From: Phoronis australis
Lineage: Eukaryota > Animalia > Phoronida
Assembly: GCA_002633005.1 (NCBI GenBank)
Contig: NMRA01000428.1
Span: forward strand, 118,900-182,899
Reading direction: 5' to 3'
Length of the DNA: 64,000 bases
Shown here: positions 5,791 to 49,000 of the stretch, one piece after another
Numbering within the stretch: the stretch's first letter is position 1
Layout: each line of letters opens with the position of its first letter
Position numbers and translations under genes: made by a program
The notes under the pieces: generated by a model
What the model was told of the DNA's origin: nothing
The model's input: the letters and a program-made list of their open reading frames with translations, nothing else
Database searches by the model: none

Positions 5791-7339
5791 GCAACGGTCA
5801 ATCGCCGTTTGAGCGCAAGAAATAGCAACTTTTAACTAATGTATGCACTCACTCAGTTTTTACTTAATCTCTTTCCATTCCTTTAAGTGACGTGATTTGA
5901 AGTAACCGTCTCCAGCACGAATAATATTTTATTGCAAATTCCAGCAGCACATTTTTCAGCCGCCTTCACATGTAGGCAGCGCCATCTATTTTTACGCATG
6001 AGAACTAAGGCCTGTGCAGTAGAACGCGCCATCTATTTTTAAGCGTGAGAACCAGGGCCTGTGCAGTAGAACGCATTGCAAGATTCTAAAGTGTATCACT
6101 TAACAGAAACGACGTAACTTTGGTCTTGAAATGGGAACATTTTTATCATGGCCATGCGACCGGTCTTAGCTAAGACGTTCTTAAGATTTTCACGGGCACT
6201 CGGTTGATGAAAGTCGAGTGATCACTTGTAGTGAATATCCCAGTAGGTCATTGACTGGAAGGACAGTCTTGTCTGTGAATTGCTACCAATGACAGTTGCA
6301 AAGTAAGGGAGAGCGACGTAAACTTGAAGTTGTTACATTTTATGCTCTCGTCAATGATATGCGATGAATGCTTTCAGTCATCCAGTTGAGTAAATAATAT
6401 GTCCAAAATCGACCTCAATCCTTAAAAGTCCAATAATTGATTTCATTTTGTACATATTACGTCACTGTTATGTTGCCAACTAAATATTCATTTCTCAAAG
6501 CGAACGCAACGACGTTTGCTTGATCTTCATCAGGCGGAGTTGTTATTTCAGTGTGAATGTAAAATGTCAAATTTCCAGACTTTTCTATGATTATACGTAC
6601 ACGCGACTTTTGTACGAGGGTAATAAAGGTTTGAAGATTTTATCTAGATAGTTTTCAAACAAACACATGTTTTGCGGAACAATATGTTATTATTATTTTA
6701 GGCATCGATGCTGTTATTCTATCATGAAATTGTTCATTATTTTAATACTACTCGTCGTATTTTGTACTTATCAAATATTTTTCTATTTTTTGACCAAGTA
6801 ACCGTCAGGTCCGCTAGTCGTGACGGAAAATCAAATTGAAGCTAATACTCAAGATGTTCTAATTTTTGCTCCTTAGTTGCTTGCCATAAAAACTGGAGTA
6901 ATCATACCGTTACATAAGTACGGTGGCTGTAAAAGGACGGCACGGAACCTTTTTTCTCCGTTGCTAGCTCTGTCGACAGGCTTTACTTACTCTAGCGATA
7001 TATTTATTAATTCTATTGATAGACTTACTAACTCTATCGATAGACTTACTAACTCTATCGATAGACTTACAAACTCTATCGATAGACTTAGTTTCTCTGT
7101 CTATAGACTTACTAATCTCTATTGCTCGATAGCTAACAACTCTATCGATATAGATATTAAGTCTACACATGTAAATAGAGTTGCTTTGCAGTCCTTTTAC
7201 AGCCACCGTATTAACCAGTATCTTCCGATAAGGAAATGTTTCTTTAAAATATTCAAGGACAGGCAAGTGTATCAATTTATCGCGTGTACACGTGGAAACT
7301 TGCCGGCAAAGCGCTCTTTTTAAAAGCAACGCTTCGTCT
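5791..7339. repeat. Copy 2 of the ~1.55 kb direct duplication, including the 21-bp palindromic minisatellite at ~7010-7150
   Basis: Near-identical to 1-1566. Confidence 0.95.
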
Positions 7340-8356: not shown

Positions 8357-8455
8357 GACCGCGAGACCCCACTACACCAAGCAGCATGTCGGGGCAGCAC
8401 AGAGGTGGCGAGGGTATTGTTACAGTGTGGGGCCCATGTAGACATGCCAGACAAG
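8357..8455 (+). CDS. Ankyrin-repeat exon 1 (99 bp, phase 0-0)
   Basis: ctgcag|DRETPLHQAACRGSTEVARVLLQCGAHVDMPDK|gtaata. Confidence 0.92.
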
Positions 8456-11400
8456 GTAATAGAAACTACTTGATACAATTTTGATATTAAGACCATGTTA
8501 TCTTCATTACAAAAGCTGTAGGGTATATGAAGTTAAACTAATTATGTTGTGCATAAATACACATTTTATTTTTCCTGATTTCGACATGTATTTTCAATCT
8601 GTACCCGGTACATGCATGTTAAGAAACAGTGAGGTTTGAATCGTGTCAACAATATATATGTCAACTTAACGTTGATACTTTTTTATTCTTCATGGCAATC
8701 GGCCATTCAACATTACAACTTTATATTAAACAGGAAGCCACTAAACCGGTGTATCAACACCACATGGAGGGGTCACTGTCAAGTTATGGAGGCGCTCAGT
8801 AATTTCTGGCAGTCCACGTCTGCACCATGTTATTATTGCAACGTTTTAAAATCACCTGTAAAACTTGACTGTTGAAATCGTTACAAGTATTATAGCCTTC
8901 TTAGAGGGGTCAGTAATGTTTCATTTATGTCACCTTACAAGTTCACTTTCTCCCGTGTATGTTAATTAGCTCTAAACGTTGATCGTCCATTCACACATCT
9001 CCATTATATATTACATAGGAGGGCTGGACACCGCTGCACTGTGCAGCACTGTATGGTTATACACAGACAGTGAAGTGTCTAGTTGAACACAGCGCCACAG
9101 TGAATGTCACTAGTAAGGTAATTAATGACACACAGGTTGTTTGGTTGATCTAGTTGATTGCACAAACGATGTTTAAAACTGAAGAAGAACAAATTTTGTT
9201 TGTATTTTTGCAATTTAATGCCCCTAAACAATGTCAAATTAAATGTCGTCTGCTTTCCGTTCATGAACCACCAAAGCTTGGTAGACTGAGTATGACTTAC
9301 CTGTGTTACCTGTTGTTTGGTTGTAAAACTTAACATTGTCATGCTGATATCATTACAAGTATTATAGCCTTCTTAGAGGGGTCAGCAATGTTTCATTTAT
9401 GTCACCTTACAAGTTTACTTTCCCCCGTGTATGTTAATTAGCTCTAAACGTTGATCGTCCATTCACACATCTCCATTATATATTACATAGGAGGGCGTGA
9501 CACCGCTGCACTGTGCAGCAGGGTGTGGTTATACACAGACAGTGGAGTGTCTAGTTGAACACAGCGCCACAGTGAATGTCCGTGATGAGGTAATTAATGA
9601 CACACCGGTTGTTTGGTTGATCTAGTTGATTACACAAACGATGTTTAAAACTGAAGAAGAACAAATTTTGTTCGTATTTTTCCAATTTAATGCCCCTAAA
9701 CAATGTCAAATTAAATGTCGTCTGCTTTCCGTTCATGAACCACCAAAGCTGCGTAGACTGGTAGAGACAATGCATGACTTACCTGTGTTACCTGTTGTTT
9801 GGTTGTAAAACTTAACATATTCTTGTTGACATCAATACAAGTATTAGCACCTTAGAGGGGTCAGTGATGTTTCATTTATGTCACCTTACAAGTTCACTTT
9901 CTCCCGTGTATGTTAATTAGCTCTAAACGTTGATCGTCCATTCACACATCTCCATTATATATTACATAGGATGGCCGGACACCGCTGCACCGGGCAGCAC
10001 AGTGGGGTCATACAGCCGTCGTACAGTGTCTCCTCCAACACGGGGCCAACGTGAATGTCCGCAACAAGGTAATTAATGACACACAGGGTGTTTGTTTGAA
10101 CTAGTTGTTTACACAACGATGACTAAGCAGAATCATTCGGTGATTTAATTAATCAATCACCATTTATAATTTCGTTGTAAATTTGATATTTCTCCTTGCA
10201 CTCCACGTGACGTGCACGTGAAGTAACGTGCACGCGATTTTAACTAATTAGAAACAGTTTTCAGGTCACATGGCGTTGTACAATGAGTTTGTTATTTACT
10301 TGCATTTTCATAGCACTCACTAAATGAATGTCGCTCTGTTGTATAACATCAAGTTGTCATACTTTAAATTATCTTTTCAATGCGCGGCTACAACACATCA
10401 GACGAACATTTAAGGAATGTCGCTCAAATTGTGTGCAGTTTAAATGTCAGGTTGTAGTCACACTCTGTTGATCCACCCACGTCAAGAATATGCAAATGAT
10501 GGTGAAGTTTTGAATTTGAAAAATATAAAACGTGACGCCCTGTTGAGCCACCCATTTCGCTATATATAATTCTGATCAACTTGCTGTAGTGGGGTGACAC
10601 ACCGCTACACACGGCGTCAGAGGGAGGACACGCAGCGGTGGTGAAGCTTCTAATCATTAAAGGCAGCTGTGACGTGACTGCCGTAAAGAGAGTTGTACTC
10701 CGTGTTTGATTCATACTGCAATAAATGTGTTTCACATGAACTACGAGTTCGAGGAATTATTCATTGAACATAAATATCTCATCAATAATGATCTACCTCT
10801 TGGGTGAACCTATACATGAAGTTGTTTCTTTACTGCAGGTACCTTCCCATAATTCTCGGTAATTAAAAAAGTCACTGGTCTGATCCTAACATTGCGACGC
10901 CAACTAAAAACAGACCAGGAACGCCATGAGTCGCCTACACTGGGCACAAATTTAAATTTTCTCATCATATTGATTATAAAATATTCAGGTTTTAATCAGA
11001 ACTGTGCAAGGAATTAGAAGTGCATTTAGGAAATCTCCCTAAAGGTTTTCTAGTCCTGTTTTCTTTAATACAGCGGTTATTTAACAATTCATTTTGAAAG
11101 TTTTGTTACCCATTTAATCCGACTGTATAACTATGTATGTTCCTGCCATGGGTTGATTTATATATTCTGTGACGGGGTAATCTAGGGCTAAATTGGTCAA
11201 AGTTCAACCCTTCAGAAGGAAAAGTCGTTTTTTCACTATACAAGAAGCCTGCGCGTTCTAAACCCTTAGAAAAGCGTTGTAAAACTATTTTACGAGCGGT
11301 AATCTTCTTTTCTGGTTCACTGCAAATCCAAGATATGTGTGTAGGTTATTTTAAATGGTGTTTAGAAGCTAATTTGTTAATGATTATTGCGTGAATTTAG

Positions 11401-14400
11401 TTGTCACATCTTCTTGTAATGTTAAACAGTTTGATCCGTTAGTTGCGAACACTTCTAAAGTTATAAAATTGTATTTCACCTGTTTGATTGAAAACAAAGA
11501 CCGTCGATGTCCTTTTGTCGTACAAGGTGTTTTTTTGGCAAATCTTGTTTTTGTCTGGACTAAATGTGTGTGGACGGCCACGTTCTCAGAAATTACCTGT
11601 GTCGATCATATCACTCCAAATATTTCATTTATATATATCACATACGATATGACCAAAAAGAAGTTCAAGTTATTTAGGAACGTTTCCAAAGTTGCCAACA
11701 TTGGAGAATGAAAAGACGGGGCACATGGAAATGAATATACAGTTTTGTGAGCAGTAGTCACAAGATACATTGAGTTAGAGGAAGTATTCATTCAACCGAA
11801 ATATTTCATCAAAGATGTCCTACTTTTTTAGAAACCACTTCGAGTCACTTTTATTTTCACCTAATTACTGGACAAGTCATTTCGGCCTAAAAATGTTATT
11901 CATGAAATGGGTTGGTTAACGCAGGTTTCATTGTGACTGATGTTTCTGTACCATACACTGTTCTCGATGTTAATTTCGCAAAAGTGACACTAGATGTATT
12001 GACTTGGGACCCGTTCACTATCAACCGCTACACTGACAGATGGTTATATGCTGGCTGGTTTATGTGAAGTCATATACTTACACCAGATTTATAAAACAAG
12101 TTCTGTTTTTGTGAATTTTTGACACACTGTCAATTCTTGATAGTACTGATATACAAACCAGCCTCATCAGATCACCTGTCAATTGTACGACTGAAGCTTC
12201 ATCCAAACGCAGGAAAAAATAACTATGATCTACCGCGCCGGTGCCTGTTGCGCGCTCCCAATGCGCCGCCCCTCGATCATGCCCTAGCTGTTGGTGACAT
12301 GAACATGACCCAGATTGTGATTTTTTTGAAAATATTATCGATTTAAAAAAGCTGCCCCATTACCACAAGTACAGTTGTTGATCTTTACTGTTTCGGTTGC
12401 TGCCTATGCGGGCATTTAGGCGCACGTGACTTTGTGTAAAGTTCACTTTTCCGCAACAAAGTGGAAGACGTTGAGGTGTATTCAATTAAAAGACTATCAA
12501 ATGGAAAGTACTGAGCGAACTAAGAACATCAAGTTTAAGAAGGGATAAGCACCCGCACCTACCAGTTAAACTATTAAGCGCATGCACCTAGAGTGTATGT
12601 GCGAAACATTTCAATAAACGCAATATTCCACGGCTTAGGATGCATGGGAATAATTTTGCGCATGTTATTTTTGATGTGAGAATCAAAGAAATTGCACCAG
12701 CAGAGGGTAAGATAGCGACCACGTGTGTTGAAAGTTCAATGGTTCCAAGCAGAGACTTATCTAAGAAAATCTCTTTTCTCATCGATAGTGTATCTTTAAA
12801 GTCGCTTTTAAACTCGGTGCTGCGGTTTTTGAGATGTTGGAAGTGAACTAGAACTACAGAGTACAATTATTCCTATTCCGATGCTAATTTTGTTGATTTT
12901 TACTATCAAAAGAACAATGTTAGTATTACAGAACTATTATTTGATTGGACAGACGTCATTAGCTTTGACCTGAATTATAAAACAACTAGATCCGTTATGT
13001 TTGGGGTTTTTGAAATCAATTCTAAGTCTAAATTTATGTGTTTGCGATTTTATTACAAATCGTGAATTTCGCCGTTGTCTGGCTAACATTCGCTTAAAAT
13101 ATTCTGACAAGGTGTGGTTTAAATCGCCTGCAAAACACTTGGCTGCTAACACCATGGTGCTAGGCAGTCTGGAGCGTATCTCAGAAAATCACATTTCTCA
13201 CCAATAACGGTTCAAATACCACACCACGAATGCACGAACAGTAACTTGTGTTAGTTATAGTACAGTGATTGTAAAACAGTGTGGATTTTTTAAATTCACC
13301 ACTGTGATGAATGAATTATCTCTAAATAAGTTAGGTATATCTGCTTGAACAAAGGGAGGGTAGGATCATATCCGATGACAAGTTTATCGATATTTTGCGC
13401 CAAACACCGATTTAAAGAATAATTTAATTTCATCAGGCGAAGTTGTTGGGAAAGCAACATGAGTGGACGAGGTTAAAACCGCATCATAGCGTTGACAGGA
13501 ATGGGAAAGTTTGGCAAACTTGAAGACTATGTGTGAGGTAGATGTAGACGATATACCTGGTGAGAAAATTAATGATCAAAAGATCAAACAATGGTATTAG
13601 TATAGTTTATTTAAGATTTGGTTCAACGCAAAGCGTTCTACTTTTCACAACAAAGGTAGTCACAGGATTACAACGTGTGTGTCCAATGAACTGCTAATTG
13701 GATCATTAAGGGTCGTGACATTCCTAATGTCTCGAATGCGTGTTTGATTAGAAGCTCGAGCATTTATTTCCAAAACACCCTCATATTCTCGCAAATCAGT
13801 TAAGGGCAAGCCTTTTGTGCCTGGAGTAGAACACAGGACTCCATACTCATCTGGGCGATGACAATGTATTCCGCGAATAAATTTGCTGGTTTGGCAACTG
13901 CCAGTGAAATACGAAATAATCCTCACACCAAATGTGTTGATCAGGATCAGTCGAAATGGTTTTTTCGAATATTTGACTATTTAAGTATTCCGTTGAAATG
14001 TCAATTCCTATTCACAACTTCAATGGATGATGATTTCCAAGAACTACCAATTGTAGATTTTCGTCTTAAAATTTGGATGCAACCGTTGTCAATAAAATGA
14101 AACTTATGCAATGAACGTTTTGGTCAAAGCACACCTCTAGTCGTGCCTTTCCATCGGAATAGGAATAGAAAACAAAAAAGCCAAACGCATAAACAAAAAT
14201 ATTCATATCTTCAAAAAGGACGATTCAATGTCATGGTTCTCAACATTAATCCATGTTACATAAAAATCGAATCGTAAGGATTTTGGCACGTTTGGTGTAA
14301 TTCAATGATGTGGTGAATAGTACAGTTTTGGGGTTTCAAAGTGTGAGATTTTGAATTATTGAAAATAACATTTTCCAGCATATTTGCAGTGAATTTATTC

Positions 14401-17400
14401 TACAAAGGATGTGGACGTTCTAAATCATTTTCGGTAAACAATAAAACATGCACACTGACAATCACGTTTGGGAGATGTCTTGTTATAAATCATTTTTACT
14501 TGCGTTACATTTTATAATCTCTAATGTATGATCTTAATAGACGGACAACCCTTTTGGTATTTGTCACTTCCTTTATACTGTTTTTAATTTAGCTAGTTTT
14601 CTTTCCTACAGCAACGTGGTTTAGGGGGAACGTGTACTGGGGGGGGGGCTACTTAGTTTTAATTTCAAGGTGATTATGTAGTGGTCAAGATGTTCACAAG
14701 ATGACAAAGGACTGAACAAATTACTTGGAATTTCAATTACTTCTCTCGAAGTGTTGTAACCCGGTGGCTTATTTTTAATCCGACTGCACGACTGTGTATG
14801 TTCTTGTCGTGCTTTGATTTATATATTCTGCGAGGGTCTAATCTCGTGCGTAAATTATTTTTCGCTGTTGGCAAGGGAAATTCCACTGAAAATTATAGTC
14901 GTCCTATTCATTCAGCAGTAAACACCATTGAGCCTGTTCATTCTTCTTTATGCACAGTAAGTCTCGTCGTAATAATGCCACGAGAGTGTGCAGGGAAATT
15001 GTCATTCTGCGTCCAAAGTATGCACACGAATTTGAGTTTTATTTTTCATGTCAAACTTGCAATGAATGGTAGCGTGAAGGACAATTCCCACAAATTGCGT
15101 CACTTCGGACTGCTTTACCTCAAAGATGGTAGATCAGGTTTCGGTGGAGCAGCATCACAAACGTTATGAATATTGATAAATTTGGACAATTTTCTAGGGT
15201 CTCTCAGAATCCATTGTGTTTTTTGTGATTTTGTTACAAGTCCCAAAGTCTCTCAGTGGTGTCCAGAGATTCGCTGAAGTCAGAGACAGTGGCTTTTTTC
15301 AGTAAAAGCGAAATTGGGATTATAGCTGTTCGCTTTCATCATAGCTGTATAACAACAAAAGGCTGTTCTGTGATTTTATTACAAATCTCGAATTCTCGTT
15401 GTTTTCTGGCAGACATTCGCTGAAATTGTGACACTCTTAAAATACTAACTAAATTTAGCTAGTGGGACTTAGCTCAATGGCAGAGCGTTGAACTGCGACT
15501 GACGAGCAATTGCTTTCGATTTCTTGCTGCGACTATCGTCAAAAAATACCTTACTCCCCGGTAATGTCTCTTTTAATATTCTTAACGTAGTCCACCATTC
15601 ACGGAGAATATTTTTTTCCGACAACATTGTTGGACTGCAACCGCGGGGTTTGAAGGTTGATTCCACTCTGAGGCTCAAATCAGATATTTTTGCACGAAAC
15701 AGCGATTTAAAGAAAATGTGACTTGCAACCCAACATTATTGCAAAATATTGCCACATTATGTTTCTCGTTAATTCTGCTCGATGTGCAACATGACTGAGT
15801 CAACTACTCAACCACCAGGTGGCAGTGTTGGCATGTTTATAAAGACTTTGTTGGCAAACTATGCTATCTGTAAGATTTACAACAATAAAAGAAATCGGAA
15901 AGCTAAAGGTTTTTTGTGAAGTACATAATATAAGTTTATTGATTAATGTTACTCAGCAAGTTTTATTTACACTCTAGTGTGAAAAACTAAAGACAAAGGC
16001 CGCAGTGCATTTTTCAATGTAACTGCTCTTTAAGACTCATGCGTGCAATACAAAGCTGTAGGAAACCGTGAGTTCAACTCTCCTTGACAGAGTGTTCACT
16101 ACATGTATCCTCTACACGCAGATGAGTTGAGTCTACTGAAAACATTGTTAACCATAACGGATAGAGCTGTTGAGCGTGTGTTGGCTCCAGTTGATGATAT
16201 CACACTATGGGATCCATACGCTTACAATTCATCGAAATGTGTGACATGAACAAAAAGTTGTTCACACCCTGGTCTCTCCAATAAACTGACTTAAGTCTCA
16301 GATTTGTCTCAACTCCCAAACTTGCAGAAACGGCGAAAGGTATGCACTTTGCTTGTATCCATGAATATGGAGGTCACGTGTTTTGTGTAGTGCAGGTTTG
16401 ACTTAAAATTAATACCCATTTTAATTTTAATTTTTAATCTGAATTAAAACACGTATTTTACAGGATGGAAAAACTGCTTACGATGTCTGTGGGAAAGAAG
16501 CAATAAAGAACCTCCTTAAGGTACAAAGTAATGAACCAGTTTATGAGTGTTGTTATACGCAGACGATATCATCGTTGTTAATAACTTGGTTGTTTTTGTT
16601 ATTGATATCACGACCACATTGTCAATATTAGTCCTCATTACTACTAGTACTGCTATTATCAGACCACCCAAAGAAACATGTCTCACGTGCAGAGGTAAGA
16701 ATAAGCGTTTTAGGAAACCATACCACATCTAAAACAATATCCACAGGGTCCAGGAGTTTCGTTTCGTAACTTAAACAATGCTCGTTGTTCTAGTTGGCGG
16801 GGTAGTAGGGCAGATAGTCTTGCCATATTCAAATTGATTGTAATCAGAGCAATCAATAGATCATGATGATCGGTAGAGGTTTCCGAATTGTGCTTGAATG
16901 TCACTTACATGCATTTGTATTTCAAGAGACGAAAAAACAATATCGTTTCCGTTTCATGACGGTCAATTGCGTTTGCATCTCTAGTACTTCCTGTTGAAAT
17001 GACGCGCCCTAACGTTTGTAACATCTAACACAATTTCACGACGTCATTGCAACAGTCCAACAGGTACAGTAATCGAGAATGTTGACCTAATTTCCAATCT
17101 ACACTTATGGAGCACCGAAAGATTCTTAAACGAGCATGTTTATGCGCGTTGAATTAAGCTTAATCAACGCGTCAACGTTTGGTTTTGCTTAATCAACGCG
17201 TACATTTATTTCGTAAACCACCATTGTTCTGCCGTTTTTCAACGCGCATTTTAGCTTAACCAACGCTTAGTTTTCTTATATCAACGCACATTTTGATTAT
17301 TCAACGATACTTCTAGTCAATTCATATAGTCCAATCAAACCCCAACTCACAAAATCTCAAATTGACGGACGTAAGACTTTCTGCACGGCGCAAAGCAACT

Positions 17401-20338
17401 TTTGAAGAATGTACGTTGCAGACTTCTACCAAATGACCACGTAAATGTTAGGAACAGGTATATTTCAATATAAACTTGTCTTTGATTGCATGTGACGAAC
17501 TACTAATTCACTCGCTGGTTCCCTGCGTGTCCCCTAGGGGGAAGAGGACACGTAGGTATAATTCAGCTGCACGTGATTTATCACTGGTTGATGTACTTGC
17601 CACCTCGGCAGTCTTTGTTTAGCTTTACAACATTGAAGAAAGATAACGATAACGGCGAATTGTGACCGATTTTTAGCTTTGCGTACATCTTCATGAACCA
17701 GGTTTTCTCTATACAGTGTCAATAACGTCTTGAACAAATCTCCATTAAGCACCGATTTATCTACAGCAGACTATATCCACATTTATATTTCCTCCATCAT
17801 GCCGGTTTGTTTGCGCATGAAGCGCTTACTGCTGACAATTAGACCAGCTAATCAGAATCGCCGGTGTAAAAAATTTCCCGGGGAATATTAAATGATACCT
17901 GTGGCGCTCATCCCCTAGGGGACACGCAGTAAACAGTGAGAATCAACCCAGTCCCTTAACTTTCGAGGTGAAAGTTATCTGAGGGCGCTGTTAACGCTCA
18001 AACCTACTTGCACCACTAGGCATATGTGTCCTTGAAACCCCTTCCCCTTTCGATAATCAAAGTTGACGAGGTTTCATCTGAAACCCTTACTTCAGTCCTG
18101 AGGTAATGATTGGGAATGCTCGTTGTTTGAAACTTTTGAAATGTAGTGGTTACAATCCATGAGAAATATCCAATTACTTACATTTAACAATGTCACTTGC
18201 AGAAACACATGAAACAGACTCCACGATCCAAAAAAATGAACCGAAGTGTCGAGTGTGCTGAAGAAATGCGACCCCGTGTGCCTGAAGGAGCGACTGCGGG
18301 TTCACCCGATCAACGTCTGGGAGCGAGTGCTACCCCGTCTGAGAAGCAGTTTAGTTCAATGCTCGAACGTTATGCCTACTCAAAAGGCAAAACCATCCCC
18401 GACAGCGAGGCGGAAGTCAGCTTTACAGTAAAAAGGAGAAACGACAGTGACTTGGACATATTGAAGTTGGTTATCAGGCAGTCAGGTAATTGTAAAGTTC
18501 AAGGAAGGAGTCAAATTTCATAAACGAATTCCTGTTCCTATTCCAGTTTCCACGTAAGAGTTTCTACATGAACCAACTCTATATTTTCCAGATTACTTCC
18601 CACTCATACAGTCTCCTACACAATTAACTGGTTCAACGACACAATTCCATGCTCCTGGTAAGAACGTGATGTCGGCGGAGTTACACAAGTCTCTTGCTGT
18701 TGAGCTCCAATCAGTTGTGTTATTGGCAAAAGCAGACGGCACAGGAGTGGGATCTGGGTTCCGTGTTGGTCCAACTTACGTCATGACAAACTGTCACGTA
18801 TTAAAAGGACTTAGTCATGAACGTAAGTACGAACTTGCAAGTGTTTGAACTGAGGCATTTTGTTTATAAATAAGCATGTATAGCGATCTGGTGGTTTGAA
18901 ACTTTTAGGGCTGAGGCTTGAATTATGTTGTTACTTCTCTGGCTAGTGAGAGACCAGTGTAGTCAGCATCAAGACACTCGGTGACTGTTGCCGTACATAA
19001 AAGCTGGGTTATTTTAAAGTACCATCATTCCAGGTTTGTAATCTAAAATATTTTTGCACAAGAATCACCGAATAAAATTTTGTGGCCTAATGCATCACAG
19101 TTGTATAAAAGGCTACGTACACTACAACTTGTGGTCACAGCCTACTTCTACCATGCAAAAATTCATAAGGTAGCTGTTAATAAGTTCTTGATCAAATTGA
19201 AGAAGTATAACAAACTAAAGTAAGAAAATTCATTACCGTGCTGATCAAGTTGTTCTAGATGATGATACATTGCATATGTTAACACAGTATGATGAGAATT
19301 TCTTGCAATGTGATTCTTACAAAAAGAAAATGACAAGTAACTACTTTTTTCAAAAACTTTATTGGTGCTATTTGCTTAGTTTTCAATACATTCATCAGTT
19401 GGTCAAAATAGCTAAAGCAATGCTAGGACCAGTGTTCCACTTGTAAACAGTAAAAAATGGTACTGGTTGGGGGGTACGTACACTACGCACAGTAAATCAA
19501 CGTCAAATTTTAACTAATTTACAAATGTATGGGGTGGTCTTGAGTTTTGTGCTGCCGCTACTTGTTGGTTTGTTGCAAGTTGTCTTGAGAGATAGAGAAC
19601 CTGCCTCTGCAACATCAGTTGTCACGTGACATGTCTTCTAGGATTTTAAGTACAAGTTCTGATCCCCAGCCATTTTGTTTTGAAGTCCAGCCGACTGGTT
19701 TTCAAGTCCGCCTAGTCCAACCAATTGTTCAAGGCCAAAAAGTTTTTACATGTTAAAGTGGAGTCATTTATTGTGTTAAATACTCCATGAGTGGGTTGAT
19801 ACACGGTATCACATCACATTCTAATCCAACGAAAAGGTTTTGTTATGTAAGGACACAGTATATTTACGCTTAGAACTAAGCTATAGTACAGAAAATTGCG
19901 GCCTTATATTGAGTATGCGTTTTTTGATCGACACAGTCGTGTGGTCGCAGCGTTCCTCGGCTCTCCTGGTATTCTGAAATGTACTTTTTGCGGTCCAATC
20001 CTACTGCCTCGAACACAGCACAGTTTTCACCGTTATTTTCCGGTGCTGTCATCAACAGGAGCTAAAGCAACACACTGTATTTTCTATATTCCTGGATGGA
20101 TTCTTTTTAAGTTCCCGAAGAACTTTTATTATTAATGAATTGTTCATCGTGAGATATTCACAAACTGAAATTTCAATATGAAATGAAACTTTACAAGTTA
20201 TTAAACATAACGGATTATCTTATCACTTTTCTGGCGCCTGTATGCTTGATATAGATATGACGTCACACGACAACAAGCCAATGCACATAACAATAAGGTA
20301 CATGTATAGCCGCGAAGCAAATATGTTCATATATATAG

Positions 20339-20427
<89 letters not shown>

Positions 20428-20432
20428 TGAAG

Positions 20433-20469
<37 letters not shown>

Positions 20470-23400
20470 TTGTGTGTATTTATCCTATATACATTAGAAT
20501 ACTACTATAATACCTTCTCTTCTTGAATTCATTTCATCCGGGACATCCCCAGATGACATTATTATACCCATGTATGTGGGGTAATCTATATAGCACGTCA
20601 AGTGGAGTCATTTAGTGCATTCTATGATGCATTAATACATTAATAAGCTGATACACTTTATTATTGACAGCCATCAGAGACTAAGAGACGAGAAAACATG
20701 TTTCAATTTGTATGTTCAGCTTCCGTTGTCAGGCATTATAACCACGCCCAGTGCAAGTGAAACTGTGTTGCACTACACAATATCAGCTTCTGTCAATTAT
20801 TATCAGGAAACAAACTGTTGATCATTTCCAATTATGTACTTTACAGCCAAGGATAACGTGGCAGTGTTCAATTTTGACAAGCCTCGTCGCATGGACGGTG
20901 TCGGAGCAGCGCCTATCCGCGCCATATTGGCTCATTGCGAGGACCTCGATGTGGCCGTCCTAGACCTTGATTTCGACGCAGTACTTCCAATAGCCTTTAA
21001 CGAGTGTCAAAGGATCAACAAGTTCTCGCTTCCATCGCCTGTTACTGATTTTGCCACTATCGATGCGCAGGAATATATTCATTTTGTTGGACATCCAACT
21101 GGTGACGGGAAAGTTTTGGATACTCAGTGTACAATTGACCGTACTTGTACATCGCCACACAATAGAGAAAAGGTGCTATAATATTCTCAATGCAGGCCCG
21201 TAGCCAGGATTATACGAGGGGGGGCTCCGAATTTCTAAAAGGTTGGACCTTTTGACGGCATTTCGCTAGAAGTAGCGTCGACCCTCTCTACTTTTCTGGT
21301 TAGCGCCCTTCAGAAGCTGACGCATAATAAGCGACGCAATAAGTTTTCAAAGCTTTAATGTCAAGAACATTAATAGTTGAACAAAAACTTAATACACTTG
21401 ATTCAATGTACATGTAAGTTCCACAGAAGATACACATCAGGTTAGTACGCTATCAAATTTCATCTTCCTGGGATTTATTTGCTCAAAACGCTGGACAACT
21501 CTGTCAATTTCTATCACTTTGTTGTAATTAACGTGCATCAGCGCTAGGGATGACATTCTGTCACCACTCATACTTGCTCGCATGAACGTGTTGAGTCTGC
21601 GTAATGTGCTAGCTGATCTCTCGCGTTCACACGACGTCACCGGTAGTGTAGCCAAAATTTTTAGCCTTACACAGACGTTCGGATACAAAATTTGGCCACA
21701 GTCTTGTATAGTCTGGGAACATGTCGACAGCGCATTCTGCTGGGATTTCCAATTGTGCCTCCATTGCATCATTTCCTGTTGAAGTAACTCGGGTCATCGA
21801 AGACTTCATCCACAGTCTCGTGAAGTTCCTGGTACAGGGTTTGAATCTCATTCACCATTCCGTAAGCTTGTACAATATCAACTGTTGTACTCTGCAATTT
21901 GATTGTAATGCCTTCTAGATGAGAAAGTAAGTTATATACTATGCAGAATGTCACTATAAAATCAAAGGAAGTGATACCAGCTAGCAACCCACTTGCTTCG
22001 GATTTGTACTTCCCTGTCCAGCCTGAGGTCACGTCGGTGCTGTACTCGTGCTTGTGTTGGTCATATGCTATAACTTCTAGCGAAATTACAATACACCCGT
22101 ACGACTGAAAAAAACCTCGAATAAGCATCGTGACGAGCCGCCCAGCGAGTGCGGCAAACATCAATGAGGGGCTTTTTAGCGATTCGGGGTCTTTCTTTTT
22201 ATGCATTTCATTCAGGAGGTGTTCTGACTTTGGACGGCTCATAAAAAAGTAAACAACGCATTCTAATTTATTCAAAGTATTTCTGATTTCCTGTATCGAA
22301 CATGAACAGGCTATCACTAAGTTTAGACAATGACTGCAGCAATGTGTGTATAAGGCTAAAGGGGAGTGTTCACGCAGGATTGCCATGACGCCAACGTTGT
22401 CACTACTCATATTTGCTGCGCCATCATATCCCTGGCCTCTGCAGTTGGCAATGTCGATCCCGAGCCTATCTAAGGTGCCCATTATGCATTCCGCTACGTG
22501 TTTGCCGGTTATCCGCGCAAGACTACAGATTACCAGCAACTCCTCTCGAATGTTGTCATCGGCGTCTACAAATCGTATACACAAGGGCATGAGTTCTTCA
22601 TTGTTGGACGTAACCTCATCAGCCATAACGGAACAAAACTTGGCATCTTTTATTTCCTTTACAATATCGGCTTGTATGAGGTGTTTTCCAATAATCTCGA
22701 TAATTTCATTCTGTATTTGAGGCGAAGTGCACATGGCGTTCTTCATTTTTGGGTGCTGTAAGTGTTTCTTTAGAGTTTCATCACAGGTACTCGACAGTTT
22801 CAAAAGAGCAAGAAAACTTCCCGGGTTACCGTTATCTTCTGTCAAACTTTCAGAATCTCCTCTAAGTGCAATACACTGGCGACCGCAATAAGGAATCGCT
22901 TTAGTTATTGCCAGGAGATTGTGCCTGTTTTCCTTTATTTGGTCTTTGACTTTACTGTCTAAGACAGCGTCAACACCTTTCTGCGGATTTTCCATCATGC
23001 TAACAAATGTATTAGCATCATTTAATGCCTCCATGTCATATCTTTTTTTGAAATGCTCAGACAGTATTTTCGTTTTATGATGCCATTGCGTGAATTGCCT
23101 GTTCACTAACTTGGTTGGTTGCCTTTTTACGTCACCTTTCGAAAATAAAGCACAAGAAACGCAGAACGCACCATCAATTTTTGAGCTATACACCAATGAA
23201 TTCCCAAACTCTTTAAACCAAGCGTGTCTGAATGAGCGGTTACACCCCGCTGCATACTCTGTTGGAAAAATGTAGTCAGGAGATGGTTTGTCGTGATTTT
23301 TGATAAGATTGTATTTTTGCACGTCACTTAATTTGCTTAAGGCGTAGGAAACCTCTTCTATCGAATCTGTTGCTCGGACGCATGGAACTCTGCGAGGTGG

Positions 23401-25122
23401 TGTACCATTGCCACTGATTTGCTGTCAACACCACGCTTTTCTTCATTGACTGAAGATTGGTTAGTGGACCTAGGCGTACATGTATATATTCCTGCCTGTG
23501 AACAGGCACCTGTGTCCATATCTGAGTTTTCTGTCAAAAACACGGTAATTAAACGTCTGTTTTTAGGAGCAGGGGCTATACGTAAGCTGAATTTAAAGAA
23601 TGGAAACGCGTTCAATTATGCGCATCATTATGCATGTCAATCAAACGATCCACAAGTACAGTGTACATTGTAAGTCGCAACAGAATCCGCGATAGCTTTC
23701 GATATGGAATTTCGAAAAGCGTGCTATACATTGTCACTAGCAACAACCGAATGCATGCGACAAACCTGGCTCCCGTTCAGTAACACTAGGTCCTCGCTAA
23801 AAAACAAAATTGCGCGAGATTACGTGAGATATTGCTGTGTATTTTAAATACAAACACGTGACTTATGTTAGATTTTAGCTAGGTCCTAGCGTCTACTGAA
23901 CGCACACCTGTTTTCTGCTTCTTCGCCCATTGGTTGATTTTAAGACACCCACTCGCTGCTTTTTTGAGAGCTCTCTCTCTCTCTCGATGCTGTTTACCAC
24001 CAGGCATGTTCGCTAATTTAGAATGACCCTCGTACCTCATGGTGTAGTCATCACGAGAGCACGTGCGTTTGTGGTTAGTCGGTGTCTTTGAAACTGTCAA
24101 TGTCTTGAAGCGTCCTGTGGTCGTCTGTAGGCCTAAGATGCCGTTACCTACAAGAACTATCAGGCGAAGTTCTTGCGGTCTGATGTCGCTATGCAAAGCG
24201 GTTTGAATCAGATGAGCAGTGAAGATTCGAAATCATCACTAGTTTTTTGATCATTTTAATTAATAGTGGCTGTAGTAATTTCTGTTGGTGTCCTGCTACA
24301 TCCTTATCGTAGCCCGAGCTGGAGGTTTTCGGCGGGGAGGGGGTTCGATCGAACCCCCCGAACCCCCCCTGGCTATGGGCCTGCAATGTCACTCAGAATG
24401 AGTTTGATATGAACTAGAATGTACCTTTGTTCAGTTTTAAATACAACCAATTAAGCGAGTTCTACAGTTCAATGTAGGATGAAAGATGTTTTACATACCT
24501 AGAAGTTATATCAGTAGGATTACTAGACATTTGCCAGCTGGCCTTAAACATATGATTTGTTTTATTGAGTGAAGAGAAAAGATGGCATTTAGGCGAATGG
24601 CTGAAATTCTTCCAGTTTCTTTAGAAACAAGGTTGAGATTTTTATGCCCTTCAACATATTCTTAAAATTAAACCGTACTTCATAGGTAGAGTGTTGTTTT
24701 ATTTCAATAGTCAGCAGTCATACATGTAGTTTGCTTACATCAGTGACCAACACGTTATGTGTTCTTAACCTGTTTACGAAATCACGTTGTTATACTTACA
24801 GCTCCTTGGGCTACACAGGAAATATAACAATGACGTGTTCAAGAAAATAGCAGACAGACGGCGAGCACTTTACCAATCCAGCGAAAAATTCGGCAACGGC
24901 AGCTCAGGAAGTCCAGGCTTTGTAGCTGACCATCAAAAACGGGCGTGCGTGGCCGTCATGCACTCGTGCGGACATTTCATAAGGGTGGCGCCTGGGGAAT
25001 TTCATCTCGATGCTATTGAGCAGGGAGTGAGGATGGAGTGTGTCTACGAGTTCTTGTTACATAATTATGCTGAGTTGTGTACGGACATTTTCCGTGGAAG
25101 AAAGCCAGCTCGTGTAGTGTGA
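8357..25122 (+). CDS. Spliced gene: ankyrin-repeat array fused to a FAM111-like trypsin-fold serine protease (~570 aa visible, 5' end not found)
   Basis: Exons 8357-8455, 9019-9117, 9491-9589, 9970-10068, 10590-~10691, 16464-16520, 18203-18485, 18592-18822, 20847-21172, 24802-25122. All are AG/GT flanked with compatible phases (0,0,0,0,0,0,1,1,0) and no stops until TGA at 25120-25122. Joining of the ankyrin and protease halves is inferred from frame compatibility. Confidence 0.72.
9019..9117 (+). CDS. Ankyrin-repeat exon 2
   Basis: acatag|EGWTPLHCAALYGYTQTVKCLVEHSATVNVTSK|gtaatt. Confidence 0.92.
9491..9589 (+). CDS. Ankyrin-repeat exon 3
   Basis: acatag|EGVTPLHCAAGCGYTQTVECLVEHSATVNVRDE|gtaatt. 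Confidence 0.92.
9970..10068 (+). CDS. Ankyrin-repeat exon 4
   Basis: acatag|DGRTPLHRAAQWGHTAVVQCLLQHGANVNVRNK|gtaatt. Confidence 0.92.
10590..10691 (+). CDS. Ankyrin-repeat exon 5 (donor ambiguous)
   Basis: ctgtag|WGDTPLHTASEGGHAAVVKLLIIKGSCDVTAVKR; candidate GT donors after 10682, 10691 or 10694 are all phase 0. Confidence 0.85.
11000..15800 (-). pseudogene. Probable decayed cadherin-repeat coding relic, antisense within an intron
   Basis: Broken minus-strand frames contain cadherin-like motifs: IRVHTLDA/NDNFP (14993-15037, with a 1-nt shift), INIHNVCDAAP (~15150), VISENVAVHT (~11580), RIDFKNP...FIIQVKAND (~12955-13030). Internally repeated diverged segments are present. Many stops. Confidence 0.4.
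16464..16520 (+). CDS. Ankyrin C-capping half-repeat exon (57 bp, phase 0-0)
   Basis: ttacag|DGKTAYDVCGKEAIKNLLK|gtacaa; resembles the usual terminal ankyrin motif G.TA.D.A....I..LL. Confidence 0.8.
17506..17943. mobile_element. MITE-like element with ~45-bp imperfect terminal inverted repeats
   Basis: ctgcgtgtcccctagggggaagag (17523-) is the reverse complement of ctcatcccctaggggacacgcag (~17907-17929), with one mismatch and one extra g. Confidence 0.65.
18203..18485 (+). CDS. Linker exon of the ankyrin-protease gene
   Basis: ttgcag|KHMKQTPRSK...LDILKLVIRQS(G)|gtaatt; open frame, phase 0 to 1. Confidence 0.75.
18592..18822 (+). CDS. FAM111-like protease exon carrying the catalytic His
   Basis: ttccag|...LAVELQSVVLL...GSGFRVGPTYVMTNCHVL...|gtaagt. 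Confidence 0.9.
20341..20468. repeat. (GT)n followed by (GTCT)n microsatellite
   Basis: Directly visible. Confidence 0.98.
20847..21172 (+). CDS. FAM111-like protease exon carrying the catalytic Asp
   Basis: ttacag|...AVFNFD...EDLDVAVLDL...IHFVGHPTGDGKVLDTQC...|gtgcta; GHP.G..K..D.C is a FAM111-type motif. Confidence 0.9.
21193..24383 (-). mobile_element. hAT-superfamily DNA transposon with 16-bp TIRs and a 5-bp TSD (CAATG)
   Basis: TIRs caggcccgtagccagg / cctggctatgggcctg (one mismatch); caatg at 21188-21192 and 24384-24388; internal transposase. Confidence 0.93.
21437..23322 (-). pseudogene. Frameshifted hAT transposase (TTF-type Zn finger, DUF4371-like region, DDE core, C-terminal dimerisation domain)
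   Basis: Motifs LVYSSKIDGAFCVSCALF, IALRG, SVMADEVT, GQGYDGAANMS, YTHCCSHCLNL, LPVTSCERERSASTLRRL. The expected DVCRTRW motif lies in a different frame near 22140-22165, and the C-terminus (21437-21772) is out of frame. Confidence 0.88.
24802..25122 (+). CDS. Terminal FAM111-like protease exon carrying the catalytic Ser
   Basis: ttacag|LLGLH...LYQSSEKFGNGSSGSPGF...VAVMHSCG...IEQGVRM...*. Confidence 0.92.
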   Translation, partial: LLGLHRKYNNDVFKKIADRRRALYQSSEKFGNGSSGSPGFVADHQKRACVAVMHSCGHFIRVAPGEFHLDAIEQGVRMECVYEFLLHNYAELCTDIFRGRKPARVV

Positions 25123-34164: not shown

Positions 34165-37100
34165 TTAAACAACGCTTTCTCGAAGATCCTGTGCCACGTC
34201 GTTTTCTTCCGTTTTGATCATTGCGCCGGTTTCTTGATTGCTCTCGGACACAGAGCATTTGTTTTCATTATCGTTGGTAGAAACGGGTTTGTATTCATGT
34301 TCTTCTCCCACGAAGCCAGATTCTTTTGACTGACTTTCGATGGATATTTCGCAGTGGGCAGGTGACTTGCCGTCAAACCTGTTGCCATGACGACTTGCCA
34401 GTATCTGTAGATATATCACGGACATCATCCCCAAACTAGATAATCCCAGACAGGCGTACATCAGGGAGATCTGACTGATATTCTGCAATAAGTATCCAAT
34501 AAGATTGTCTGAACCAATATCGATAATGCTGGCTACAGAAGCTATCCAGCCATTTAAAGCCACGGTTATAGTAACATAGTTATTCATCCAGGCAGCCATC
34601 GTGGCCCACATTGGCGAGGAGAGAAATTTATACGAACATAGATAAACCCATAGTGTTGCGTGGGTTGTCAAACCAAACGACAGTAGGGCACATGACACTG
34701 TTGTTCCGACAACCTCGATAAATAGCATGACTTGTATTGGAAGGAACAAACTGCAGACAGTAGCCACTACACGGGATACCAAGCGCATGATGTTTGAAGT
34801 GGATATCAGGTACGCTGCTTCATCTTTATCAAACTTCAAATCGTTTTCAATTGCAAAGGAAAAGCCCCACATTCCAAGTGCAGAACCGTGACTACGGAGA
34901 CATCCGAAATATACAATCAGTCCAATTAGCATGAGCAATCCGAATCTAAAATCCCCGTCAGCCCATCCCTTTGGTGAAATGAAGTTCAACACGTTGCCCT
35001 TTGCTTTAGCTAATTTTTTGCCAAAATTGTTCGGATTGGTTTCTGGAATCGGGATTTTGTGGTGCTCCAAGACATCGAAAATTATATAACAAATGGAAAA
35101 CATCACCGAGGGTATTGAAAATACCAAAAATGGTATCTCAATTTGCGACGTTTCCATATTGGAGTTACCAGCCGACGACCTTTCTGTGAAGTTGAACGAG
35201 AGAGAGCTAGATGTCGAGTTATCGTCGTGCTGAGACATGTTGAACACGCTTTCGTCGTACGTTTGAGGAGATGATATGAAGGATTTGCTTATCAGTGGGG
35301 CAACAGCTCCACCTATTGGAAAACCCAACGATATCAGATGCAGCGGAAACGTTGCTTGTCTTTTCCACATCGAGCTGGTCAGAGGTGGTATGACTGGAAT
35401 AGAATTTCATTTTCTTTATTGAAATCCTCCCTTGGGCGTATGTTTATTATTTTGGATGGATTAATCAGTGCTTTATCAACAAAGGGGTGCCACGTGAAGT
35501 AGCGTATTTGTGCCACATTTCGCCAGCCATATTGCGCCACTGCCAGAAAACTATCAACAAGAAACGACCAATACCAGTACCCGGTGTAGAAATGCGGTTG
35601 TGCTGCGGGTACCATAGTGTATTATGTGTCGTTCTTAGATGTTTGGCTTAATTAAGTATTCTCCCGGTGACTTTTAATCAGATTTTAATCCTAAGTGTTC
35701 ATTTTATTTGTCAATTCCTGACTTCAATGTAGTCTGGTTTTAACAAAATGCAGAATCTTGATTTACTTGTGTTACAGTTCACACTAGGCTTAAACAAGCT
35801 CGTTTTTTATACTCACTAGATTTTAAACACAAATTACGTCTCAAACTTTCCTGTGCCACTACAAAATGAATCGACGCTAAGCGATTTTCAACCCACAACG
35901 CATCAACGTGCCAACGAGCATCGATCAGTTTATGCAGGGTTGGCCAACCCGTCCAAACTTTGTCGGCTTTTATCAACTATTAGTGATTGTTCAACCACTT
36001 TGAGGATAGAAAAAAGTTGTTGCAGGAAGGACAGCTGAAAAGTCCAGTCTATGGTTAGGCGTCGTGTGATAAACATCAGCCTCGCGTCTGTGAAGATCCG
36101 TTGCCAGAAATAAAAAGGAAAATTGGGTTGGAGGAAATGGTTATAAGACTTAACAATGATAATAATACAAAATGCAGTCATTGGAAACATGGACATAGAC
36201 ATGTGCTAAAATATGTCTTACTTGAATCCCGCTCAGAGGGACATCATTTTTAGTTAGAATCCAGTGTAGGAATACAACGGAAATCGCCCTCGTCCATGAA
36301 ATCAACTTTCGTTCGTTTTGTGTAATCGATGAGGTAACAATCAGCGTACACACGTTAGTGTTGACTTCTGTCATAAATGAATTGTCATATCAGACTTGAA
36401 CCACTCGACATAAGAAAGTGCTGAGGACTATCTGGAGTTTATGACACTCAACCTTGTACTTGCAAGTCCTTCAGTGTCAACTTGGGGTCACAAAATGTTG
36501 AAGTTCATCATTTAGTAATTTTGATTATACTCCAGTCGTTCGTTATTTCTAATGAAGGCAACTCATTGGATTTCAAAACGTGCAGGAAATTTGATACCAA
36601 TAGTGACATTCACATTTTTTGGTCGAGAGGTCTAATCAAATCAAATTTAATGTTATTTTTGACGTATGGCATCCTATCGCGCATTGAAGTAAAAAAGCAA
36701 AAATTCGGCATTAGACTCGACATTTTTGCTTAAAGCTACGGTCATTAAATTCGAAGTACGGTCATCCATGTAAATTATGATATAATTCAGCACAGAAAAA
36801 TAGACAGATTTTTTTTTATTTCACAAAGGAGTAGAACAAAAAAATGGCAAAGAATACGGAATCAGTTCGAGTTCAAAGATTAGACCCTGGACCATGGAGA
36901 TTGGTGTTTATGTCTGCCAACCAACGCGCAATTTAGATTACTAATCACGGAAATTGTATCTAAACAAACCCAATGTTTGATGGCTTAGAATTTTCAAAGC
37001 CAGTTTGCTTACGCGTTGTCTTGGCGCTCAAACACGATGAAAGATAACATGACCCATCTCTCCCATTTGCTCATGGTTGATTCATGTGGAGAATCGGACG

Positions 37101-46081: not shown

Positions 46082-49000
46082 CTACATCACAGTTTCTCGT
46101 TGTCCTGACGCCACAGTATGCTTGTTGACCCCGCCACCTTTAGGCAAATGTACTTCGTGTTTGTCAACGAAATCAAATTCCCCATCATCATCATCTTCGA
46201 GAAAAGTTTTCAACTCTTTTGAAGGACCTTCTTCTAATAGTGTATCCTGAATCCAAACCTTTTCTCGAAGTTGAACAGTATGGTGACTTGCAAGGATCTG
46301 AAGTAATATTGCAGACAACAACCCCAAACAGGACAGACCCAGACAAACATACATTAAGGACATCTGACCGATATTCTGCAGTAGGTATCCTATCAGATTG
46401 TCCGTACACAGGTCTACTAAGCAGGTTATAACAGATGCCCAGCCAATCAAAACCACGGTAAGACTGACATAATTATTCAGCCAGGACATCATGGTTGCCC
46501 ACATGGACGAGGCGAAAAGTCTGTAAGCACAAAAATATACCCATAATGCCGTACGGGAAGTGAGACCAAATGATAAAAGAGCGAATGACAGGGTTGTTGC
46601 AACAGCCTGGGTGAAGAGTATGACGTGTACAGGAACAAACAAACTGCACAACGAAGTGACGACACGTGACACCAAGCGCATGAGGTTTGCAGTGGATATC
46701 AGATATGCGGCTTCTTCTTTTTCAAACTTTAAATCGCTTTCAATTGCAAAGGAGAATCCCCAAAGAGTAACTGCAGTTGCGTGACCACGAAGACAAGAAA
46801 AATATACAGTCATCCCAATAAGTATAACCAATCCAAAGGTGAGATCCCCGCCAGCCCAATTCCGTGGGGAAATAGTTTCCAGGAAACTGACTTTTGGTTT
46901 GTCATGCGTTGTGCCGTTGCTGTGCAATTTATTGTCGGGAATCAGAATTTTACTTCGTTCAAGAAAATCGAAAATCAAAAAACAGACGCCAATTAATGAC
47001 ATCAGACTCGCAATGGTTATGAAGGGTATCTCTATCCTCGACGGTTGAGTGTTAGCGGACCATTCCGTGATATTGTCGGTGTTCATTTGCTGTAAAGACA
47101 TGTTGAACATACTTTGACTTTCATTAGATACCCGTTGTGTCCGGTGTAGGGAAATGAAAGACTTGCTTATCAATGGCGCGACAGTTTGGCCTAAAGGAAA
47201 GCCCACCGAGACGAGATGCAGCGGAAACGCTGCCCGACCTCTCCACATTGAACTGATTATTTGAGGTTCCACTGAAACAAAACATTGAGATACATGAAGG
47301 TCTAGTGAATGCTGAATAATCCATTCAAGGGGTTAGCCACAGGTTATCAAAAATCCTGAGAACACTCGAAACCCCTCAGCTTAGGGCACCAGGCACAGTA
47401 AAGACCCTGCCTCGTTGCTACAGGAGTTCGTAGAAAAAGGGAATCGATATGGTGCCGTGGGTAGCTAAAAGGTATAGCGACTGACGGGGGGGGGTGAAAA
47501 TTATAAAGACTCTTGGAGGTGAGTAGGGGTGATTGTCACGAAGTTGGGGAAACTCAAATAAGTTAGACGCCCTACACTTCTTTGAAACTGAGTACTCCTG
47601 TCCAGTAAATCTTAACTCGTCACTGATTAAAATTAATGATGCATTCACTATCCCCTGATTACTTAAATGTGACATCAACAATTATGCTTATTAAACATAA
47701 AATTTAGGGGCTAAAAGTTGTTTGCGAGATAACGCTCGTTTCAAAATTCAGTTGAAATTGAGAGATAAATTTGAAGACAACACATTTTGGAGGGATTTGA
47801 CTCGTATATAGGCCTACTCTGGAGAATCTTGAGGCAACAGTTAGTTACGCAGGTTGCCAATCCCATGCACGTGTGGCTTTGGGTAAATGCCGTCAAACAA
47901 TATCGGTAAAAAGTCAATGACGGCACAAATAACATTTTTCATTTTCTAAGGACGATTAACCCACGTGACTGCACTCGTCAATAGCATTTCGCATTTGCGA
48001 GACTGTTTGACAGACCGCAATTTATATCAGCAATACCTCAATTTGGCTCAACTCTTATTTCAACGAAAACAGAAGAAGATTAGACCGGCTTTATAGCAGA
48101 AAGTGAACTTGTTCAAAATTTGCTTGTTGAGGTGTGGCGTGAACCGAATGCTCGAAAAACAAACCTTTTTAAAAGTAATTTTTTAACTTTGGTCGTTCTT
48201 ATAACACATACGACAGGGTACTTTACTAAACACCTTTTTGAACGCGGTCGTCGTGTTGACACATGTAGTCAGGCTCCAATTTTCAAAAAGGCCTCAGAAA
48301 GTAGTGTCGTGGGCATTTAGGGTAAAACAGATCTGCTCATTGATTTTTAACTAATCTGAGGGCACTGAATCAAAAAACTGTATGCCTCACTGGATTTTCC
48401 CCTGTAACCATCAAATCCAGCGGCCATTTTGAAATTGGAAAGTTCCAATAAATGCCTTTTAAAATGAGTATGCTACAACAAACTATAGGTTTTCAGGTGT
48501 AATAAACTCATTTTGATACTGTTTTTGTGATTGGAGGTTAAAGTCACGCGAAAAATTCAAGGTCAAACTGCACCGCACATGCTCCATTGCAATTGCAATA
48601 AGCTCAACTATTTTGTGCATCTTCACACATAAGCTCAAACAAGTTATGTAGTGTTTCAGGCAAACTGAGTTTTGCTTACGCCATCGATAAATCTAAGATG
48701 GCGGCCTGCCACCATCTTGGAATGGTAATGCCTAAGTAAGTGTTCTTAGTTCTCTAGTGATATGTTAATATATTAGGTTTTCATGCACTGGAGGCTCATT
48801 TTAAGCACCATTTTCGTAATTAGACGTCAACATTATGCTCAAAGGTTGAATTTTGCCAATGTGTAATGACTTGAAAACACGAAAATGTCAGTTGCAATCG
48901 AGTGCCAGCAAAGAAGCCACTTGTATTCCATTTTCATTTTTATTACAGGTACACGAACATCGTTTGCTACAATAACGTGTTTCTTATGAAGATTATAGCA

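Follow-up and report, generated by a model that had tools for sequence, protein, structure and literature searches.

How should one read a locus at which single-repeat ankyrin exons are followed by the exons of a trypsin-like protease: as two neighbouring genes, or as one, and if as one, what might its product do? We asked this of a 64,000-nucleotide stretch of the Phoronis australis genome (contig NMRA01000428.1; the whole stretch is hereafter the window), for which a preliminary description, made from the letters alone, had proposed that five ankyrin exons and a capping exon run into a FAM111-like serine protease between positions 8357 and 25122. FAM111A works in replication and also restricts viruses, and invertebrate members of its family occur without its ubiquitin-like (UBL) domains (PMC9798293). 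We conclude that the ankyrin-FAM111-like fusion is real, expressed and apparently undescribed, and we put at roughly one half the probability that this expressed gene, with its ankyrin array and FAM111-like protease, is an intracellular immune sensor-effector made from a shuffled protease cassette. The gene and its bivalve relatives show what replaces the UBL domains, namely ankyrins along with further domains of a kind usual in innate immunity. Should the sensor-protease reading be true, these proteins would be an undescribed set of intracellular immune proteases in invertebrates, and a natural fusion of binder and protease would offer a model for targeted proteolysis.

Exon structure of the fusion gene

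All ten exons were found at the positions that the preliminary description had given them, each with AG/GT ends, and the six ankyrin and cap exons were all in phase 0, as it had said. They are listed here with the transposon that lies in the last intron (aa, amino acids; E, E-value).

8357..8455 (+): ankyrin exon 1; the first exon in view, of 33 aa and phase 0/0, with splice ends and without start codon; Pfam Ank E 6e-09
9019..9117 (+): ankyrin exon 2; belongs to a recent tandem duplication of exon plus intron (~470 bp per unit); Pfam Ank E 1.3e-09
9491..9589 (+): ankyrin exon 3; 11 bases unlike exon 2, none silent; Pfam Ank E 8.5e-09
9970..10068 (+): ankyrin exon 4; joined in RNA straight to the cap exon (joint 10068>16464 in 3/3 raw-read runs); Pfam Ank E 1.6e-13
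10590..10691 (+): ankyrin exon 5; 34 aa, with a weak donor and left out of the fused transcript; Pfam Ank E 2.9e-08
16464..16520 (+): C-terminal capping half-repeat exon; 19 aa, RNA joints on both sides in 3/3 raw-read runs
18203..18485 (+): linker exon; 94 aa, without known domain, RNA joints on both sides
18592..18822 (+): protease exon A; carries the catalytic His (18795-18797), the alpha1 helix and, at the place where FAM111A cuts itself, a Phe (18645-18647); RNA joint 18485>18592; Pfam Trypsin_2 E 0.0024, below cut-off
20847..21172 (+): protease exon B; catalytic Asp (20948-20950), GHP motif; aligns to relatives; Atlas trypsin-clan neighbours 0.85-0.91; junctions predicted
21193..24383 (-): hAT-like DNA transposon within the last intron, with terminal inverted repeats and a transposase divided between two frames; Pfam DUF4371 and Dimer_Tnp_hAT
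24802..25122 (+): protease exon C; carries the catalytic Ser (24904-24906), the oxyanion Gly and the MH and IEQG motifs and ends with the stop codon; junction predicted

Spliced together, the visible exons give an open frame of 571 aa in the ten-exon form and of 537 aa in the form without exon 10590-10691, both ending at the TGA at 25120-25122. Each of the five repeat exons passed the Pfam cut-off for Ank, which bore out the ankyrin call, and a Pfam scan of the four exons after the ankyrins gave one weak match, to Trypsin_2. The motifs TNCHV, DLDVAVL, GHP, GSSGSP, MHSCG and IEQG were all present in the spliced protein. With a maximum of 1.27 for hydrophobicity over 19 residues, the visible exons encode no transmembrane segment, as had been claimed; the accompanying claim that there is no signal peptide likewise holds for the visible exons, the first of which (8357-8455) lacks a start Met. 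A basic stretch follows the cap, and the linker region, a 113-aa stretch, matched no Pfam or NCBIfam family and had no similarity to the 11 relatives described below.

Neither an ankyrin profile nor a protease profile picked up additional exons in the window, and the 5' exon was not located there. Two copies of one sequence lie upstream, at 1-1566 and 5791-7339 (96% identical; an N gap, 2184-2239, separates them), as a tandem duplication or a haplotype artefact; the gene's 5' exon may lie in or beyond this duplicated region.

RNA reads join the ankyrin and protease exons

Four RNA runs under one species label were mapped to positions 9650-20300, with about a fifth of each of three raw-read runs (X2, X3 and X4) used. 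This range takes in the exons from ankyrin exon 4 to protease exon A. The raw-read runs were stranded and placed the transcript on the + strand. Reads from all three crossed the joints 10068>16464 (2/3/14 reads in X2/X3/X4, and a further 9/4/0 that use a variant exon end), 16520>18203 (6/4/12) and 18485>18592 (19/13/22), each with GT..AG ends. At the joints of the cap the shorter side of the reads extended up to the full 57 bases of the cap exon, which fits reads spanning both joints. The spliced chain runs from the ankyrin exon through the cap and linker to the His-bearing protease exon and is one transcript unit, and the joints linking the ankyrin exon to the first protease exon rule out separate ankyrin and protease genes. 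Beyond that exon, the joins 18822>20847 and 21172>24802 are predicted, from AG/GT ends and matching phases.

The fusion that the preliminary description had claimed was supported by RNA as far as the first protease exon, and its junction from the 16464 exon to 18203 was found in three runs as 16520>18203, but its fifth repeat did not stand. Junction 10691>16464 was absent among the 15 strongest of 16 joints, the RNA going from 10068 to 16464 instead, and the skipping of exon 10590-10691 in the reads rules out five repeats as the main form. Because this exon is skipped, the cap in the expressed fusion follows four visible repeats. The donor of exon 10590-10691 is atypical (AGA|GTTGTA), the depth over the exon is low (bin mean 0.2-2 vs 10-17 in the linker bin), and 11 reads run on from it into the intron behind, where a read-through stop follows six codons on. 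From the run-on reads and the early stop, this exon may end an ankyrin-only isoform.

Some reads pointed beyond this one gene. In one RNA contig the cap exon was joined upstream to another ankyrin exon and downstream to unrelated sequence; in 5 reads (4 + 1) the linker was spliced to a variant cap exon, which has the same length and keeps the frame. These RNA variants hint at module shuffling in Phoronis australis, and paralogues are likewise hinted at. The intron ahead of ankyrin exon 4 (9851-9970) showed + strand RNA of up to ~150 reads, and 14 reads near it jump back 461 bases, as expected if tandem ankyrin units, in other alleles or elsewhere, stayed unspliced.

Relationship of the protease to FAM111

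When exon C (24802-25122) was compared with 1.84 billion representatives, its sole match was a bivalve-type FAM111-like protease (E 7.5e-4), which had the clam protein XP_060583283 as a cluster mate. XP_060583283 led to seven more bivalve-type proteins, and a profile search added two more. The window's three protease exons aligned in order along one protease domain of these relatives, at 25-30% identity, and no other copies of the three exons were found in the window. On a profile of 10 relatives the spliced model scored 94.7 bits, against at most 5.2 for 1000 shuffles. A family profile of nine bivalve-type rows and the window's three exons matched FAM111A in the PDB (8s9l and 8s9k, E 1e-17 and 2e-17), with the next family at 2e-4; this FAM111A signal comes mostly from the relatives, which the window model joins at the score just given. 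Single exons had no significant match in the PDB, and the link to FAM111A goes through the family profile.

For one of the two relatives taken from ENA records, FAM111A was the sole PDB match, and an Atlas model of the clam relative had template-modelling (TM) scores of 0.72 and 0.70 to FAM111A and FAM111B clusters and of 0.59-0.61 to bacterial EAD1-trypsin clusters. An AlphaFold model of the clam relative was poor (predicted local distance difference test score 49, 8 sequences); its fold search put FAM111A first at TM 0.39, near HtrA, and is not a main support. None of the 126 candidates from a word-index search with exon 20849-21169 passed the limit of E 0.01. PADLOC matched none of the window's three exons, and it and NCBIfam otherwise returned generic trypsin matches alone. 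A NAL1-type protease was considered and rejected, as the window's exons had no Nal1 Pfam match at E up to 1 and the profile's 31 PDB matches included no NAL1 chain.

The His-Asp-Ser triad, the oxyanion Gly and the equivalent of E573 were identical in all 11 alignment rows. Of the residues of the chymotrypsin-like S1 pocket, the window protein keeps the H556 and E573 equivalents and has Asn at F538. The window protein and 7 of 10 relatives have a Phe 23 residues ahead of the first-strand Val; in the other three relatives the distance is 25-26 residues. By counting on the FAM111A chain with the numbering of PMC10920703, this conserved Phe falls at F334, the autocleavage site of FAM111A (PMC9798293); cleavage in the window protein is a prediction.

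Judged by its sequence, the protease belongs to the FAM111 clade. The earlier call of a FAM111-type, trypsin-fold protease with an intact triad is upheld by the profile, the triad and the oxyanion Gly, with Trypsin_2 weak on single exons (one of three, below cut-off). We do not class the window protein as an orthologue of FAM111A or FAM111B, because the UBL domains are missing from the visible exons, whose N-terminus is ankyrin, and because the dimer residues V347 and V351 are changed. A tree of the 11 domains is uninformative on orthology because it has no vertebrate row and the branch of the window protein is long (2.31).

Modules carried by the relatives

Three of the 10 full-length relatives carry ZAP/PARP12-like CCCH fingers together with a Rel-homology-like domain, the fingers matching ZAP structures at E 1e-18; one further relative has the Rel-homology-like domain alone, one has HEPN_DZIP3 and one has Roc-COR. 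From these architectures the protease seems to behave as a cassette behind differing modules, several of them of innate-immunity kind; HEPN RNases and ankyrins do occur in invertebrate immune proteins (PMC8195603). A profile search of proteins of 542-2000 aa gave 7 matches among the best 7996 candidates, none with ankyrins, which is weak evidence of absence.

Among the bivalve proteins, P0002, P0003 and P0005, annotated as uncharacterised, combine CCCH fingers, a Rel-homology-like domain and the FAM111-like protease in one chain and are candidate RNA-sensing proteases; P0009 joins a Roc-COR GTPase to the protease in 1194 aa, and P0007 joins HEPN_DZIP3 to it in 681 aa. The FAM111-like proteins P0010 and P0011, from the ENA records, have N-terminal halves that are 36% identical mutually and have no Pfam match. 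By eye these halves seem to hold a motif of the FAM111 UBL region; if true, such a motif would argue against UBL domains being confined to vertebrates.

Comparison with described systems

The closest characterised proteins are human FAM111A and FAM111B (PDB 8S9K, 8S9L; PMC9798293, PMC10920703), which likewise have a C-terminal Trypsin_2 domain with the triad, the oxyanion Gly and the H556 and E573 residues, a helix before the first strand, a Phe at the P1 position of autocleavage and no transmembrane segment. They differ in having a PIP box and two UBL domains where the window protein has its ankyrin array, and F538, V347 and V351 of FAM111A are replaced by Asn, His and Ala. The invertebrate 'FAM111A-like' proteins of Paramuricea (A0A7D9LSX1) and Branchiostoma (A0A6P4ZC58), compared here by their description in the review PMC9798293, share with the window protein a FAM111-type protease, the lack of a UBL pair and a marine invertebrate source; that review names no domain in place of the invertebrate UBLs and has 0 mentions of ankyrin.

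The nearest relatives found are the uncharacterised bivalve FAM111-like proteins of Ruditapes (XP_060583283, XP_060552617), Mercenaria (LOC123563543, LOC128549418) and others, which belong to the same clade at 26-30% identity and have the same conserved Phe behind a variable N-terminus. That N-terminus is ZAP-like CCCH, Rel-homology-like, HEPN_DZIP3 or Roc-COR, never ankyrins, and the H556 equivalent is Leu in 8/8 of them, whereas the window protein keeps His. The EAD1-trypsin and bDLD3-trypsin proteins of bacterial conflict systems (PMC8195603) likewise use Trypsin_2 as an exchangeable effector, and the EAD1-trypsins are structural neighbours of the clam relative, at TM scores below those of the FAM111 clusters; unlike the window gene, these effectors are operon-based and recruited via homotypic adaptor domains.

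A literature search by title and start of abstract, in which subscription journals were largely missing, found no ankyrin-FAM111 fusion. The 866-sequence network of PMC9798293 could contain ankyrin-bearing entries, and automatic annotations of ankyrin plus Trypsin_2 may exist. The preliminary description had not recognised the architecture as a described animal family; an undescribed architecture fits the literature search, but that it makes up a family is not supported, with ankyrins in none of the 11 relatives and paralogues hinted at by RNA variants alone.

Recent duplication within the ankyrin array

Exons 2-4 sit in exon-plus-intron units of ~470 bp, and self-alignment matched 8857-9643 with 9322-10121 at 89%. 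Between exons 2 and 3, 11 of 99 bases have changed, and none of these changes is silent (p 0.047). The changes fall on 8 of the 18 bases in six codons that we take to form the binding surface (positions 2, 3, 5, 13, 14 and 33, as in the design of designed ankyrin repeat proteins, or DARPins) and on 3 of the 81 bases elsewhere in the exon. The introns adjoining the two exons differ at 16 of 369 bases (96% identical), and by Fisher's test the surface codons stood apart from intron (p 2e-6) whereas the rest of the exon did not (p 1.0). To us this pattern points to selection for a new binding specificity, though it comes from a single pair and is not proof. The randomised DARPin surface is described in PMC8229355 and PMC8683736, in passages that give no position numbers.

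Proposed function and rival explanations

Indirect signs of an immune role are the immune-type domains on the relatives and the surface-focused, non-silent change in the ankyrins. In the mechanism that we propose, the protein would be intracellular, and the groove of its ankyrins would bind a pathogen-derived protein, most likely a viral one. Binding would cluster the protease or free it from inhibition, the enzyme would cut itself after the conserved Phe matching F334 of FAM111A, and the protease would then cut the bound target or host factors, so that the invader is restricted or the cell is killed, as by over-active FAM111A. Human FAM111A is a restriction factor for SV40 and poxvirus mutants (PMC9798293); its activity sets off apoptosis, and in excess it kills cells (PMC7534640). 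The gene would be one product of a wider pattern in which invertebrates attach the protease cassette to different recognition modules. A bolder version, which we offer as a tentative and rather doubtful extension, is that the FAM111 protease domain is an ancient, mobile animal immune effector swapped among sensing modules; this gene would then be ligand-gated with diversifying ankyrins, an ankyrin-only isoform might be a decoy or regulator, and the antiviral role of the human protein would be ancestral, with the replication role coming later.

A number of observations weigh against a sensor-effector. FAM111A needs dimerisation via V347 and V351 (PMC10920703), and in the window protein these residues are His and Ala, K345 is Glu, K348 alone is kept and the alpha1 helix is weakly amphipathic; because V347 and V351 differ, activation by clustering is unsupported by sequence and the FAM111A route of activation is not clearly kept. 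Ankyrins occur in 0/11 relatives, so the fusion may be young and local; 4/10 full-length relatives have no recognised N-terminal domain, and 3/4 of the Rel-homology matches were below the Pfam cut-off. In the ankyrin array the signal comes from one exon pair, the other five pairs being weak or null (p 0.049-0.30), and the six surface positions are putative ones, taken over from DARPin design. Most reads are 90-95% alike to the window; their source is other individuals and may include paralogues, so we regard them as coming from other alleles or paralogues. Twenty bases separate the donor of the last intron, whose junction 21172>24802 is predicted, from the 3.2-kb transposon behind it. A ligand, a substrate, activity and induction by infection are all hypothetical, and the ankyrins could equally recruit substrates to an always-active protease.

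In a different account, a non-immune protease (for example one that, like FAM111A, clears protein obstacles from DNA) would use the ankyrins as its adaptor for substrate or localisation, in place of UBL/PIP targeting and with no gating. Replication forks are another site of FAM111A action (PMC9798293, PMC10920703), ankyrins serve generally as binding modules, the basic stretch after the cap could direct nuclear import, and the gene is expressed in 3/3 raw-read runs. A housekeeping adaptor would be expected to be conserved, yet no close relative stands among the 1.84 billion representatives, the newest repeats differ by non-silent changes alone that focus on the binding surface, and the relatives carry immune-type domains; we consider this account unlikely.

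Phase-0 single-repeat exons shuffle easily, and the joining of the cap exon to unrelated downstream sequence in one RNA contig, the skipped repeat exon with its weak donor, the transposon within the last intron and the lack of an ankyrin-bearing relative would all suit a recent, near-neutral shuffle between multi-copy ankyrin exons and a FAM111-like gene, transcribed without a fixed role and perhaps decaying. We think this distinctly unlikely, as the reading frame stays open through 1614 coding bases and every catalytic residue is retained at 25-30% identity to the nearest relatives, the same joints recur in three runs, the equal-length variant cap keeps the frame into the linker, and the change pattern of exons 2 and 3 is not neutral. 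Very unlikely, in our judgement, is that the ankyrin transcript has the first protease exon alone, with the Asp and Ser exons unjoined in this allele and the product a catalytically dead or ankyrin-dominated decoy. The junctions 18822>20847 and 21172>24802 being outside RNA coverage, the transposon near the last donor and the run-on reads that suggest an ankyrin-only isoform ending in exon 10590-10691 leave room for it; set against these are the canonical AG/GT ends and matching phases of both last junctions and the order of the three exons along one protease domain, with no other copy in the window.

Transposons and other genes in the window

The hAT-like element at 21193-24383, 20 bases behind the last-intron donor, is 3191 bp long and flanked by a 5-bp direct repeat; the target-site repeat of hAT elements is usually 8 bp. 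Further downstream, 34165-35406 and 46082-47332 (-) are two related large exons (74% identity in 574 bases) that belong to tandem genes of membrane-transporter type, and exon 46082-47332 (-) has a weak MFS_1 match. The fragmented open frames at 50124-52527 (-) look like a decayed transposon-derived gene.

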